Shown here: piece after piece, positions 6,001 to 12,000 of the stretch
Position numbering within the stretch: the first letter of the stretch is position 1
Layout of the letters: every line of letters begins with the position of its first letter
DNA from: a virus
Taxonomy: Duplodnaviria > Heunggongvirae > Uroviricota > Caudoviricetes
DNA length: 46,614 nucleotides
IMG/VR virus record: IMGVR_UViG_2713896798_000017
Direction: 5' to 3' (one strand)
Program-made: the position numbers

Positions 6001-9000
6001 TGCTTGGTAACTCGAAGTATTGCCCGGCGTTCTGTGGGGCGGGGTGGGTGGTTGGTGTATGTAATCTACAATTAAAAACTGTTTTGTGTCAACAGTTTTT
6101 AATTGTTGTTTTGGGCAAAAAAATCCCTCGAAAGAGGGAGTATGAAAATTGTTCAACTCAGATAGAGAAGGGAAATTGTCGCCGAGAATGTGTCACGCTT
6201 ACAATCTCAATGCTTGAAGCAGCTACTCTGTACAGGATTATGTAGTTAGGGTGGGTCACGATCTCTCTCAATCCAGAAACCCGTTCGCTTGGTGGATATA
6301 AGTACGGATGCTCAGATAGAGGTAATACCGATGTTTCAATGCGTATTTTTAGTCTACGTGCTGCCGGTGGGTTCTCCTTGGCGATGTAAGTTATGATCTG
6401 GCGCAAATCATCGCGAGCAGACGGTAGCCATAAAATGGGTAACATTACTCGCTCTTGTTAGTTACAGCAATTTGAGCAATAAGATTTTCCATTTCAGCCA
6501 TTACCTCGTCATGTGGAATTGCGGGGCGAGTGTCTGCAAGGCTTGACGTTACTTTAGTGCGCAACCATTCGTTGTAACTGTTTTCTTGTTCGGTAGTTTC
6601 GAATTCTGAAACTATCGGAGAAAGGGCTGTACCCATGGCATAACTCCTCTTCTTGTACTGTGGTCACGCCCGGCGGCTTTTTTGTGCCGCCAGCCACCTA
6701 GCAATGGTTTCTTCCATTGATTTTTTCTTGTCTTTGATTTCTTGAAGCATTTTTTCTTGGTCTTCCTCAGGAAACGCACTAAAAGCTTGGAGCAGTTCGC
6801 GTTGGCGAGGACCAATTTTCATCGTGTCAGGGGTGAAAATTTGCTCACACTCTTCAGGAGGCAATAAAAACCAATGCAATGGATGCCCTGAAACCTCAAC
6901 CAGTTTATCCAAACTTGAGGCTTTAGGTGTAGCCTTACCGCTGACCCATTGTTGAACAGTTTGTTGTGTCACACCAATTCTACGGGCAAGCTCAGCCTGG
7001 CTCCATCCAGTTTCCTGAAGAAGCTTGCTGATTCTGTACATAGATACTTCTAGGGCGCTCATCATTATTCAATTTTACAGGTAAATACTGTTAAAAGCAT
7101 CACAATAAAAAACTGTTGATTGCATACAGTTTTTTATTGTAGGCTTTGCTTATAGTTTTTAGAGGAGGGCAAAATGCTAGATAGCACTCGCGAAAAAATT
7201 AGGCAGAAATACACTCAGGCTGAAATAGGTCGTTATATGGGGGTCGCTCAACAGACTGTTTGGCAATGGTTTAGCTTTGGCGTTCCCCCAAAGCAGGTAA
7301 TTCCGTTATGCCAACTAATGAAGTGGGAAGTTACCCCGCATGAAATCCGCCCAGATATTTATCCTAACCCAACCGACGGTTTACCTGTTGGATGTAAGGT
7401 TAACACATCAAATGCGCCGGAGTTGATTCATGAAAATCAAGCATGAACACATCCGCATGGCGATGAATGCCTGGGCGCATCCGGACGGCGAAAAAGTACC
7501 GGCTGCGAAAATTACCAAAGCGTATTTCGAGCTGGGAATGACGTTCCCGGAACTGTATGACGACAGCCATCCGGAAGCCATGGCTCGCAATACTCAGAAA
7601 ATTTTCCGCTGGGTGGAGAAAGACACTCCTGATGCGGTTAAAAAAATTCAGGCGTTGTTACCAGCGATCGAAAAAGCGATGCCGCCTCCGCTGGTGGCCC
7701 GAATGCGCAGCCACAGTTCCGCTTATTTTCGGGAGTTGGTAGAGACGAAGGAACGGCTGGTGAAAGATATTGATGATTTCGTTGCATCAGCGATCGTTCT
7801 GTTCGATCAGATGAATCGTGGTGGCCCGGCAGGAAACACTCTGGCTGTGCATTAATTGGGTAATAAATATGAGTAATGACAAAAAATTGACACTGAGCGT
7901 TTACGAAAACAGTCCGCACATCTGGCGTGGCGGTTTATCTGATGTGGAGCTGGCAGAGTGGTTGATACATAAAGCTAATGCGCTGCTCTGGCGTTTGTCA
8001 GCCAGAGAACAGCGCAAGGAAACCAGAATAAAGCTGGCTGATGCAGAAGCGTGTGCCGGGCTTATTGAGGATTATACAAATCTTGGTATTTCTTCAGCAG
8101 AGAGTGATCCCATTCAGCCTCTGAGCAGGGAGTCAATCCAGCACGCTGGTTGTATGGCACATCTTGTAACTGCTCGTCAACATGAGGTGGGTATTGGATC
8201 ACTTCCGGTGGGATATTCGCTGATTCCAGAGCTGGTTGAAGCAAGAAAATCAGTTCAGAAAAAGAGAGATGACGCACTTCAATTATTGAGAGAGCACTAT
8301 GGCGCGATACCAGAATGCGAACAGCATCGATACCCTGAAGGTTATGAATGGATGCAGTCTCTTTTTGAAGTTCGCTAATCAATATGTCGAGACGAAGGTA
8401 TGTTTCGGCGCGCAGCCAGGCTCTGTAATCCGGGAGCATTTCGGGGCTGTTACACCAGCGGTTTGTTGCTGCAACATTTAATACATGAGCCTGATAAAGG
8501 CTTTTCAAAAAATACATGTCGAACCTCCTCTGGTTCTGTCGATTGGGAACCACAGATTATATCCGGAGGAAGGTTCGGCACCAGATGAGGTAGCCATGCG
8601 TGATTACGCAAAAGTTTCTCCGCGATTCTGGCTGGGAGAAACGGGGAGAGAACTTAGAAAGGCGGGTGCAGAAGCGCAAGTTGTTGCTTTTTACCTGATG
8701 ACATCCCCTCACGCAAATATGCTGGGTTTGTATTACCTGCCAGTTTTATACCTTGCTCATGAAACCGGGCTTGGTCTGGAAGGGGCTTCAAAGGGGCTTA
8801 AAAGGGCTGTTGAAGCTGGTTTTTGTAGCTATGACCATGATGCAGAGATGGTCTGGGTCCATGAAATGGCAGCCTGGCAGGTTGGGGAAACGTTGAAGCC
8901 TGGCGATAACCGTTGTGCAGGTGTCAGGAATGAGTATGCATCATTACCTGAAAACGCTTTTCTGTCAGTGTTTTACGACAGATATAAAACGGATTTCCAT

Positions 9001-12000
9001 CTGGATGTGAGGCGGAATAATAGCCGAAATTCGGTAAGGGGCTTCGAAGGGGCTTTTAAGGGGCTTCGAAGCCAAGAACAGGAACAGGAGCAGGAGAAAG
9101 AACAGGAACAGGACAAAAACACTATGGTTCATGGCAAAAAAAACACCACGAACCAGGCAGGGGATGTTCAGACCGTCAATCCTGGTCAGCCAGCAGGCAC
9201 GACACCGGAAGCCGATTCAGCGTATGCGCTGAAAGCCGATTCGGGCGCTGTGCAGCAGGTGATGACCGCAGGGTCGGAGCAATCACACCAACTGCAGCAG
9301 CCTGAAGCCGATTCCGCCATTCAGCGGGAAGCCGATCGGGTAGTCCCGGAAAGCACCGGGCAGTCTGTGGGACGAGTGGATTATCCGGATGTGTTCGAAC
9401 AGGTCTGGCGGGAATACCCGTTGCGTGCTGGGGCAAACCCGAAGAAATCCGCTTTCAGTGCCTGGAAGGCCAGATTGCGCGAGGGGGTGCCACCAGAGAC
9501 CATGCTGGATGGTGTGAGGCGTTACGCGAGATACCTGGCGGCGACCGGGAAAGCGGGAACGGAATTTGTTCAGCGAGCGACGACGTTTTTTGGGCCGGAC
9601 CGGAATTTTGAAAACCCCTGGTTGCTCCCGGTAAGCGGCACGAACAACCAGCGTTGTGTGAATCATATTTCTGAACCGGATACCGAAATTCCGCCGGGAT
9701 TCAGGGGGTGATGTGGCATGAAAAACATTGCGGCAGCCGGGGTTCTTGAACGTATTCGCAGACTTGCACCACAGGCGTCGGTTCCACCGTACCGGACGGT
9801 GGAGGAGTGGCGGGAATGGCAACTTGCTGAAGGACGAAAACGCAGCGAGGAGATTAACCGCCAGAATCACCAGTTGCGGGTGGAAAAAATCCTGAATCGT
9901 TCGGGCATCCAGCCTCTGCACAGCAAATGCTCGTTTGCGAATTATCAGGTGCAGAACGACGGGCAAAAATACGCGCTGAGCCAGGCCAAATCCATAGCTG
10001 ACGAACTGATGACCGGGTGCACGAATTTTGTGTTCAGCGGTAAAACCGGCACCGGGAAAAATCACCTTGCAGCGGCGATGGGTAACCGGCTGATGGCGAA
10101 GGGGCGCAGCGTGATTATCGTCACCGTGTCTGATGTCATGAGCGTGTTGCATGACAGCTACGACAACGGCAAATCCGGGGAAAAATTTTTACAGGAGCTT
10201 TGCAGTGTTGATTTGCTGGTCCTGGATGAAATAGGCGTTCAGCGGGAGACGAAAAACGAGCAGGTGGTATTACACCAGATAATTGATCGCCGGACAGCAT
10301 CACTGTGCAGTGTCGGGATGTTAACAAACCTGAATCATGCCGCAATGAGTACACTTCTTGGTGAGAGGATTATGGACCGCATGACCATGAACGGTGGTCG
10401 ATGAGTGACGTTTAACTGGGATAGCTGGCGTCCAAATGTCAGCAATATGAGGGTTGTGAAGTAATTTTGTCCGGAGGAAATTTTAATGGAAACCGTATCT
10501 GACGCACTGAAAGCACTGAAAAAAGCCTCTTCACATGTGGTGGCAGCTCGCCTTGGAATCAGTCGTGAAGAGGCTGTCAACGAGCTGTGGGAACTCAAAA
10601 TAAATGGCGTCGTTGATAAAACTGGTCACACCTGGTTTCTGGCTGGCGAAGGTGAATCCCGGGTAACCGAAGAGCGGCCAGTAAAATCTGAAGCACAGGA
10701 TATGCTGACCGGGGAGGTCGAACAAAAAGTTACCGCAGACATGATGATTGAGTTTATCGGTCAGGATGGGGCTAAAACGTGTGAGGAACTGGCGGGTAAG
10801 TTCGGTGTCAGTACTCGCAAGGTTGCTTCCACGCTGGCGGTGGTAACCGCAACGGGGCGGCTGGCACGCGTTAATCAGAACGGTGGATTTCGTTACTGCA
10901 TGCCGGGCGATAATTTACCAGCAGAGCCGAAAGCCGCGCTGGTAACGGAAAGTGATGGTAAGGCCTTTCCTCAGCCAGCAGGTGCTGCGTTACCAGTCCG
11001 GGAAGCCGCAACACAGGAAGAAATTAAAACAGAAACTGTGGCGGACATTGTGCAGCCGTTGCCATCGTTTACCGAAACGCAAGCAGATGAGCTGATTTTT
11101 CCGTCCCTTCGCAGGGCAAACCTGGCGCTGCGCAGGGCGAAAAGTGATGTTCAGAAGTGGGAGCGAGTCTGCGCCGCGCTGCGGGAGCTGAACAAGCACC
11201 GGGATATTGTTCGACAGATTACTGATTCTTCCCGCCGTGTTGTATCGGAAAAGTGATTGCCGGAGGCGCTTATGGCAAAAGTATTTACACAGGAAGAGCG
11301 GGAAAAAATTAAAGGGCAGGTTGTTGAGCTAGTACGCCGGAGTGGGCGCGAGACGTTACGGCAACTGGAAGCCAAGACAGGTGCGACAAGATATCTGATG
11401 AGCGTTCTTGCCAGAGAGCTGGTTGCCAGTGGCGATGTATACAACTCTGGTTACGGGTTATTCCCATCTGAACAGGCTCGTAAGGACTGGCAAAACGCCC
11501 GCAAAAAACTATCGAGGGCAAAACTGAAGAAACCGGTTGTGGTTGATCCTGACCTTATCTGGTCATTACCAGACGGAGAAATACGCCGCTATGACAGGCA
11601 ATTGAACATAATTTGTAGTGAGTGCCGTAACAGTGAAGTGATGCAGCGAGTTTTGATATTTTACACAGGAGTAATGATGGAATAGTGAAAATAACATGAA
11701 ACCTTTGGATTCTGGTGTTTCAGTGGATGGGAAAAGAGCAGATACATAGAAAATGAATAGCAATAATTCACAGTCTGGATGTTGTTTGTATGCTTATAAA
11801 ATGATCCTAGTATGCATTGCCGGAGTTGAATCAGCTCCAATGAAGAAACTGAGAGGAGTATTTAGAAGATAGCTAAATGGATGTAATTATTAGTATCTAA
11901 AAAATAGTATTTTTGAAATGGGTCTAAGAACACAACAATGTACAAATGAGAAGTTATCTTTTAATATGTTCAAAGACCCATTAGGATTGATATCAGTTAT

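Follow-up and report, generated by a model that had tools for sequence, protein, structure and literature searches.

The stretch of DNA analyzed here, below called the window (46,614 nucleotides, Caudoviricetes record IMGVR_UViG_2713896798_000017), matches prophage Sp4 of E. coli O157:H7 Sakai, with positions 8560–9130 being 100% identical. Inside its replication initiator gene the window carries two clusters of a 9-bp word, AAGGGGCTT, and a hexamer tract, which together are treated in the following as a candidate replication origin. The gene and its repeat features are located as follows:

8596–9711, plus strand: initiator gene, 371 codons, homologue of Sakai ECs_1073 "phage replication protein"; predicted winged-helix N-domain at about residues 1–142, iteron/linker segment at residues 147–172, swappable C-half from residue 174
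8780–8810, plus strand: putative iteron cluster 1, AAGGGGCTT at 8780–8788 and 8791–8799, degenerate third unit AAAGGGCTG at 8802–8810; 11-bp period
9036–9066, plus strand: putative iteron cluster 2, AAGGGGCTT at 9036–9044, 9047–9055 and 9058–9066; 11-bp period, direct orientation
9069–9074, plus strand: conserved AAGCCA junction, a half-iteron in 11-bp register after the CG spacer that follows cluster 2
9073–9111, plus strand: (CAR-GAR)n hexamer tract of 13 triplets encoding QEQEQEQEKEQEQ; candidate unwinding/loading tract and also interdomain linker
9112–9155, plus strand: A-rich tract with an imperfect hairpin at 9125–9155, just before and at the junction to the shared C-module (9116)

A sequence-only reading of the window had reported tandem units followed by hexamers in this gene and a second cluster about 250 bp upstream. 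Both were recovered: on the two strands of the window there are exactly five perfect copies of AAGGGGCTT, all of them within the two clusters, the hexamer tract lies at 9073–9111, and cluster 2 starts 256 bp after the start of cluster 1. Chance alone would give about 0.36 exact copies of a 9-mer in random sequence amounting to 2 x 46.6 kb. Elsewhere in the window matches with one mismatch occur at chance level, and the 9-mer search detected neither another iteron-like cluster nor a second copy of the origin. Tandem Repeats Finder assigns an 11-bp period to both clusters and a 6-bp or 18-bp period to the hexamer tract, which reads CAA GAA CAG GAA CAG GAG CAG GAG AAA GAA CAG GAA CAG. Together with the preceding 9-mer the AAGCCA junction forms the palindrome GGCTTCGAAGCC.

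The same reading had assumed that the repeats encode a repeated KGL/FEGA peptide. This is not the case, since a period of 11 bp rotates the reading frame from unit to unit and no simple repeated peptide results. The five copies start 184, 195, 440, 451 and 462 nucleotides from the start codon (1, 0, 2, 1 and 0 modulo 3) and yield the peptides EGA, KGL, RGF, EGA and KGL. Cluster 1 encodes residues E62–L68 at the start of the predicted recognition helix (H60–73).

We compared the gene with 91 related loci that were picked by protein similarity only, comprising 80 prophages from 80 species and 11 phages or contigs. Phages of Klebsiella, Shigella/E. coli, Acinetobacter and Ralstonia are included as well as metagenomic contigs; the N-domains are 51–82% identical and the GC content of the DNA encoding them ranges from 38 to 65%. 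Scanning these loci for the 9-mer with one mismatch allowed, we found the same word at the same two positions of the gene: 172 matches at +150 to +200 (167 forward, 5 reverse) and 204 at +400 to +500 (46 forward, 158 reverse), against a background of about one match per 50-bp bin over flanks of about 4 kb. In 74 loci cluster 1 comprises two copies, and in 78 loci cluster 2 comprises two or three. Of 225 intervals between one copy and the next, 194 have the 11-bp period, and the 2-bp spacers between the copies vary freely. Every position of the AAGCCA junction is at least 90% conserved in the 86 loci that could be anchored. As in the window, copies in each of the three reading frames are found among the 91 loci.

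Cluster 2 varies in its orientation. In about 80% of the relatives it is inverted with respect to cluster 1, and the last site before the tract is in minus orientation in 72 loci versus plus orientation in 15. The all-direct triple of the window is unique within the locus set. Where cluster 2 is inverted it encodes APSKPL instead of EGASKGL, with the DNA word being retained.

Next to position and orientation, codon usage was analyzed in those 70 loci in which cluster 1 encodes EGAxKGL, using as background the codon use for the same amino acid in the same domains. The codons that form the 9-mers were found at the following frequencies:

GAA (Glu): 70/70, background 50%
first GGG (Gly): 70/70, background 21%
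GCT (Ala): 59/70, background 19%
AAG (Lys): 70/70, background 62%
second GGG (Gly): 63/70, background 21%
CTT (Leu): 64/70, background 14%

Fisher tests gave p-values from 1e-14 to 1e-43, with the reservation that they ignore the relatedness of the loci. At 50–80% protein identity and across such a GC range, saturation of synonymous sites would be expected. In the same 70 loci the Ser codon is free at its third base, which falls into the spacer (TCG 31, TCA 14, TCT 8, TCC 3).

One explanation for these data would be that the DNA repeats are a by-product of a peptide motif, KGL/EGA, that the protein needs. EGASKGL is indeed conserved within the folded N-domain. However, the copies stand in different frames, the inverted cluster 2 encodes APSKPL, and synonymous sites are fixed beyond background codon use while the spacers are free. 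We rejected the peptide explanation, to which the data on frame, orientation and codons leave hardly any probability. On these comparisons the repeats are a DNA-level element and not a peptide repeat, because copies occur in different frames, cluster 2 is inverted, synonymous sites are nearly fixed and spacers vary. The earlier statement that DNA and protein repetition are coupled is misleading for the same reasons, and also because in about 8–9% of relatives the hexamers translate as GT or GA in place of QE; the frame, orientation and tract-frame data make the DNA repeat primary and the peptide a consequence.

The putative iteron word was found to co-vary with the DNA-binding domain of the initiator. 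A subfamily with 31% identity, represented by Klebsiella phage ST13-OXA48phi12.4 and 80 viral contigs, has the word AAAGGGTTY instead, as two copies of AAAGGGTTT and two copies of AAAGGGTTC at the same two positions with 11-bp spacing in 80/80 loci, likewise followed by a CAGGAA tract. The scan of viral contigs for this subfamily, made with the N-domain of locus L008 as query, gave only close relatives (86–99% identical). A further case is provided by the phages Tritos and Evi, which carry an N-domain of the Phage_rep_org_N type on a C-half of the window's type (96% identity). In Tritos (L176, OV696610.1) GTCACG repeats with 10–11-bp spacing are located in two clusters 250 bp apart, at 1154–1185 and 1414–1484, and are followed by two ACAGATAAAGAT units and the repetitive linker TDKDTDKD. 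The putative origin of Tritos parallels that of the window in its design, with another word. Two phased clusters and a repetitive linker inside the initiator gene, as candidate origins with words of their own, recur in at least two further N-domain types.

Among the relatives the same N-domain and 9-mers are paired with DnaB-type helicases, primase-helicases or lambda P, and the C-half from 9116 onwards is 96% identical in phages with other N-domains. These arrangements show that N-domain, putative iterons and tract travel jointly and have been recombined onto varied C-halves and loaders, with the junction at the end of the tract. The position of the junction (9116) directly after the tract, as well as ParB-like genes near the module in some relatives, would also suit repeats that serve another DNA transaction, i.e. 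a recombination hotspot for module exchange, a centromere-like site or a packaging site. We consider such a role very unlikely: neither the window nor most of the loci contain ParB-like genes, the repeats change in concert with the DNA-binding domain of the initiator and not with packaging or partition genes, and their location inside a replication initiator gene matches that of known origins.

The designation of the gene as O-like, made in the sequence-only reading, had to be given up. At E ≤ 0.01 no Pfam family matches the 371-residue protein, neither Phage_rep_O nor Phage_rep_org_N, and its N-domain is without a Pfam or NCBIfam model. What the gene encodes instead is an unannotated N-domain with a predicted winged-helix fold and a DnaT-like tail, and it is followed by the gene of a DnaC-type loader. 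The N-terminal 142 residues are predicted with a mean pLDDT (predicted local distance difference test score) of 86, exceeding 90 over residues 10–140 and falling after residue 142. The predicted elements (helix 25–36, strand 45–47, helix 50–57, helix 60–73 and hairpin 77–88) follow the winged-helix topology alpha1-beta1-alpha2-alpha3-beta2-wing-beta3. A Foldseek search was uninformative. PHROG matches were obtained to families described as "DnaD-like helicase loader" and "replication initiation protein", and PHROG 6251, "replisome organizer DnaA-like", was matched only at E = 1.6e-4. The N-domain is abundant, with 4,083 clusters at 50% identity for E ≤ 1e-3 and 896 for E ≤ 1e-30, and the family is spread over prophages of Enterobacterales, Acinetobacter, Burkholderiales and Xanthomonadales. 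This folded domain is separated by cluster 2 and the tract from the exchangeable C-half; both features thus occupy the stretch between the domain and the exchangeable C-half, i.e. at the location of an interdomain linker.

Two further features bear on how the protein might recruit the replication machinery:

9646–9708, plus strand: DnaT-like C-terminal tail of the initiator, 21 residues (QRCVNHISEPDTEIPPGFRG) that differ little from the C-terminal end of host DnaT
9718–10404, plus strand: gene for a DnaC-type (DnaC/IstB AAA+) helicase loader, partner of the initiator; TGA at 10402–10404

The tail aligns with E. coli DnaT residues 159–179 and with the DnaT fragments 6aep and 2ru8, and shows the DnaT motif ...VSEPDxxIPPGFRG. 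Similarity does not extend over full-length DnaT: the NCBIfam DnaT model reaches 17.8 bits, far below its cut-off of 201, and is matched only at positions 156–179, its last 24 residues. The sequence search of the PDB returned only this tail, in addition to a designed repeat protein that we judged spurious. The tail suggests that phage initiators mimic DnaT in order to engage a host primosome partner; a function of the corresponding tail within DnaT itself was not found in the literature searched. The loader matches Pfam IstB_IS21 and NCBIfam PRK12377 (positions 1–228 of 248).

Between the junction and the tail the C-half contains a repeat of its own. Four in-frame GAAGCCGAT units start at 9208, 9232, 9304 and 9328 (region 9205–9340) and encode PEADS, KADS, PEADS and READR. 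They belong to the shared C-module, and phage Tritos has them too. Only two bases distinguish the word AAGCCGATT from the inverted iteron, AAGCCCCTT, a likeness that is probably coincidental.

Taking the evidence together, we consider it likely that the AAGGGGCTT 9-mers are iterons, that is binding sites for the winged-helix N-domain encoded by the same gene, and that with the hexamer tract they form a replication origin. Very probably these sites belong to an origin type that is widespread among phages and has so far not been described. Multiple phased short words that are conserved as DNA among relatives were found, as is general for iteron origins, and lambda and SPP1 set the precedent for iterons inside the initiator gene (PMC7466680, PMC6316719). 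The genetic context also fits an origin: the gene follows genes for a cI-like repressor (minus strand), a YdaS/Cro-like and a YdaT/CII-like protein and precedes the DnaC-type loader gene, after which a DUF1627 gene is located.

A possible course of initiation can be outlined from these features. Monomers of the initiator would bind the asymmetric 9-mers, whose observed 11-bp spacing would set arrays of two to three on one face of the helix. Oligomerization of the protein could bring the two arrays, separated by about 256 bp, together in a complex that is looped or wrapped like the lambda O-some. Strain within this complex and transcription through the gene might then open the AAGCCA-(CAR-GAR)n segment and the A-rich run, which is the weakest step of the scheme. 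As judged from the domain matches, the C-half, tethered by the flexible linker that the tract encodes, would bring in the DnaC-type loader with host DnaB, and the DnaT-like tail may engage host primosome partners.

How far the comparison with lambda carries can be stated more precisely. The lambda origin lies inside gene O, where iterons are followed by a distinct tract encoding the interdomain linker, and versions with six iterons are found in the Shiga toxin (Stx) phages 933W and P27 (PMC7466680). The system proposed for the window shares with lambda an origin in the middle of the initiator gene, a DNA-binding N-domain combined with a loader-recruiting C-domain, and a module downstream of cro/cII (PMC7466680). 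The part of the sequence-only reading that stood is the location of iteron-like repeats in the initiator gene, to which conservation as DNA, helical phasing, co-variation with the N-domain and a position at the N/C module boundary are now added. The organization, however, differs from that of the lambda origin. There is no sequence homology to O and no match to Phage_rep_O. The 9-mers are asymmetric, spaced by 11 bp and arranged in two clusters, whereas lambda has four (Stx phages up to six) inverted-repeat iterons, 19-bp palindromes, in one block. Cluster 1 lies inside the region coding for the DNA-binding domain and cluster 2 occurs in either orientation. A purine-rich hexamer microsatellite, not clearly AT-rich, adjoins the sites where lambda has its AT-rich region, and a DnaC-type loader takes the place of lambda P.

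The origin oriL of Bacillus phage SPP1 is located inside gene 38, whose product, the replisome organizer G38P, binds direct repeats that are followed by an unwinding element (PMC6316719). It shares with the window direct repeats in the initiator's own gene; a separate loader and a DnaB-type helicase are present in SPP1 (PMC6316719). Tritos, with its SPP1-type N-domain (Phage_rep_org_N), combines a C-half of the window's type with the two-cluster design. The window differs from SPP1 in that its N-domain does not match Phage_rep_org_N, its repeat word is another one and no AT-rich unwinding element is evident.

Among Stx phages, the initiator of Shigella phage 75/02 Stx, type Eru4, belongs to the same family, its N-domain being 79.6% identical over residues 1–137. 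The DnaC-type loader is also seen in a related Stx1c phage (L003), which has the same iterons and tract. With an initiator related to that of 75/02 Stx and a DnaC-type loader, the replication module of the window falls into Eru4. The Eru types are classed by gene content, and their description does not mention origin, iterons or repeats (Fagerlund et al. 2022, PMC8951638); likewise a paper on the replication modules of Stx phages (PMC8044961) makes no mention of origins or iterons for the type of the window.

The Rac prophage of E. coli K-12 has the same gene order of repressor, ydaS-like, ydaT-like, initiator, DnaC-like loader and DUF1627/YdaW-like gene, and its initiator YdaU ends in the same tail, ...IPPGFRG. 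The N-domain of YdaU is DUF1376; its gene lacks a QE tract, has another repeat word at a spacing of 33 bp, and has only repeats in mid-gene in common with the two-cluster design. In the middle of Rac ydaU (L174, NC_000913.3, 3472–3563) we noticed four AAGCAGATGTTCAA-like 14-mers, mostly 33 bp apart, which are candidate iterons of the Rac origin oriJ. A paper on the sequence of oriJ was not found in the literature searched.

Several observations weigh against an origin at this position. No DnaA box was detected within about 2 kb of the repeats, and no clear classical AT-rich unwinding element adjoins the 9-mers, the least stable 40-mers of the region being located elsewhere. That cluster 2 is variable in orientation is unusual for an origin that has to assemble a polar nucleoprotein complex. 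Part of the conservation of cluster 1 is at the protein level, since it overlaps a conserved peptide, and to this the relatedness of the loci in the codon test has to be added. A binding, unwinding or replication assay for any family member was not found in the literature. In strain Sakai, Sp4 is defective and is amplified only by regional replication from the neighboring Sp5 (PMC2669165); this amplification neither supports nor refutes the proposed origin. Finally, the window copy may be inactive owing to a premature stop in the loader gene.

That stop is one of two differences to Sakai in the alignment of 8560–10600. Compared with Sakai Sp4, a G-to-A exchange at 10404 creates the TGA (W229*), by which the last 20 residues of the loader are lost. 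The other difference is a 24-bp insertion at 9209–9232, which falls within the GAAGCCGAT units. The replication module of the window copy may be decaying, and the origin may be intact as a sequence yet not fire in the strain of the window.

The lack of a clear AT-rich element next to the 9-mers would also be compatible with an alternative in which the 9-mers are bound by their own N-domain but act as autoregulatory operators or roadblocks that limit expression of the initiator, with the origin elsewhere. Additional 9-mer matches at −50 to 0 (22) and +50 to +100 (20) in the 91 loci suit such a control of expression. The main clusters, on the other hand, are located deep in the coding region and at the interdomain boundary, as are the origins of lambda and SPP1 (PMC7466680, PMC6316719), the window has no other iteron-like cluster, and the sites move with the N-domain in module exchange. 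Autoregulation and origin function are, moreover, not mutually exclusive. Overall we regard operators without an origin as unlikely. Some relatives, such as Acinetobacter phage A785.1 (L004, 1463–1482), have two extra inverted iterons just upstream of the start codon, and the extra iterons near the start of the gene may reflect autoregulation of the initiator. Scans of the region for promoters and terminators yielded matches at chance level only, and in the Rfam scan no structured-RNA family overlapped the locus.

Within the proposed origin the role of the hexamer tract is the part that is judged most cautiously. A tract of 3–16 units was found in 86 of the 91 loci, in 63 of them with its start exactly 6 bp downstream of the last 9-mer. 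Its reading frame is a different one in 8 of the 86 loci and in 19 of the 227 proteins of the family, giving GT, GA or GE and not QE; an RN/RS frame was seen only in one frameshifted-looking protein (P0024). In about 8 loci further 9-mers follow downstream, so that the tract lies within the iteron field. The most purine-rich 60 nucleotides of the window, 9068–9127 (80% purine), contain the tract, and the A-over-T skew of the window peaks here (AT skew +0.59 and +0.52 over 9050–9199). None of the three forward frames of the tract contains a stop codon, by which gain or loss of an 11-bp iteron would still leave a usable linker (QE or GT/GA).

These properties have to be balanced against the explanation that the tract has no role as DNA and is a microsatellite prone to slippage, whose product is a flexible Q/E linker, with unwinding taking place elsewhere or without a dedicated element. 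Its third codon positions, A or G, follow the GC content of the host and some GAT (Asp) units occur; that third positions track host GC fits selection on the Q/E linker alone and is a further point against a DNA-level function. Among E. coli copies that are 99–100% identical the tract has 11, 13 or 19 triplets, as expected for slippage. Tritos has a different repetitive linker, TDKDTDKD, and the stability of the duplex is unremarkable, the tract having 46–50% GC and not being among the least stable 40-mers. An ordinary linker, in contrast, is expected to drift to a mixed composition, whereas the tract is kept in almost all loci, in 63 of them at a fixed distance from the 9-mers, consists of the same DNA where it is read as GT, GA or GE, is flanked by 9-mers on both sides in about 8 loci, and in the window lies within the purine-rich peak. 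We give the linker-only explanation and a DNA-level function of the hexamer tract about even odds.

At bacterial chromosomal origins DnaA boxes are followed by DnaA-trios with the consensus 5'-[T/A]A[G/A]-3'. The window resembles this arrangement in that an array of putative initiator boxes precedes a tract in which an A stands at the center of each 3-nt period (CAR/GAR), a resemblance that serves as a lead only. The two are not homologous; in the window the tract also encodes protein, and the initiator does not belong to the AAA+ proteins. We doubt, but put forward, a more specific version of the proposed origin, in which the tract, set in register right behind the iteron array, would act as a DnaA-trio-like track for unwinding and helicase loading and cluster 1 would encode the start of its own predicted reader helix, so that site and reader could change in one mutation. 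The words of cluster 1 differ accordingly in what they encode: AAGGGGCTT gives E-G-A/K-G-L and AAAGGGTTT gives E-R-V/K-G-F. If true, origins could acquire new specificities by a self-referential route. Binding of the single-stranded tract by a partner, as at DnaA-trios, is pure speculation.

The proposed iteron origin would provide a precise candidate for a large family of unannotated phage initiators, including the "Eru4" Stx phages, for which no origin has been described. Knowing origin and word would allow incompatibility or titration experiments and the construction of mini-replicons. Origins of this type could be annotated from sequence alone by pairs of 9-mers at 11 bp, AAGCCA and a CARGAR tract, and with the junction being at the end of the tract the shuffling of replication modules could be studied. 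The locus would also be a case of overlapping codes, in which the same bases act as putative sites for protein binding and also encode protein, in three frames and both orientations. No description of these iterons was found in a literature search that was incomplete, and a query with the 9-mer gave only unrelated primer or sequence matches. In the plasmid collection, a search for replicons driven by the module returned only chromosomal prophages or mislabelled fragments, e.g. NZ_CP069825.1, which is a linear piece of a prophage, and yielded no independent sign that the module replicates autonomously.

Outside the initiator gene a few features of the window were noticed. Just upstream, two long open reading frames overlap on opposite strands. 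The one on the plus strand (7818–8378) encodes 186 residues and belongs to PHROG 8304; the one on the minus strand (8062–8553) encodes 163 residues, and a shorter version of 151 residues is annotated in Sakai as ECs_5703. Several RNA genes were identified at a greater distance: the antisense small RNA DicF at 4435–4486 on the minus strand (Rfam RF00039, 77 bits), the sok antitoxin RNA of a hok/sok-type module at 13246–13420 on the plus strand (Rfam RF01794, 107 bits), and, at 19482–19998 on the plus strand, three phage tRNA genes (Met-CAT, Arg-TCG, Arg-TCT) followed by the small RNA STnc100 (Rfam RF02076, 138 bits).

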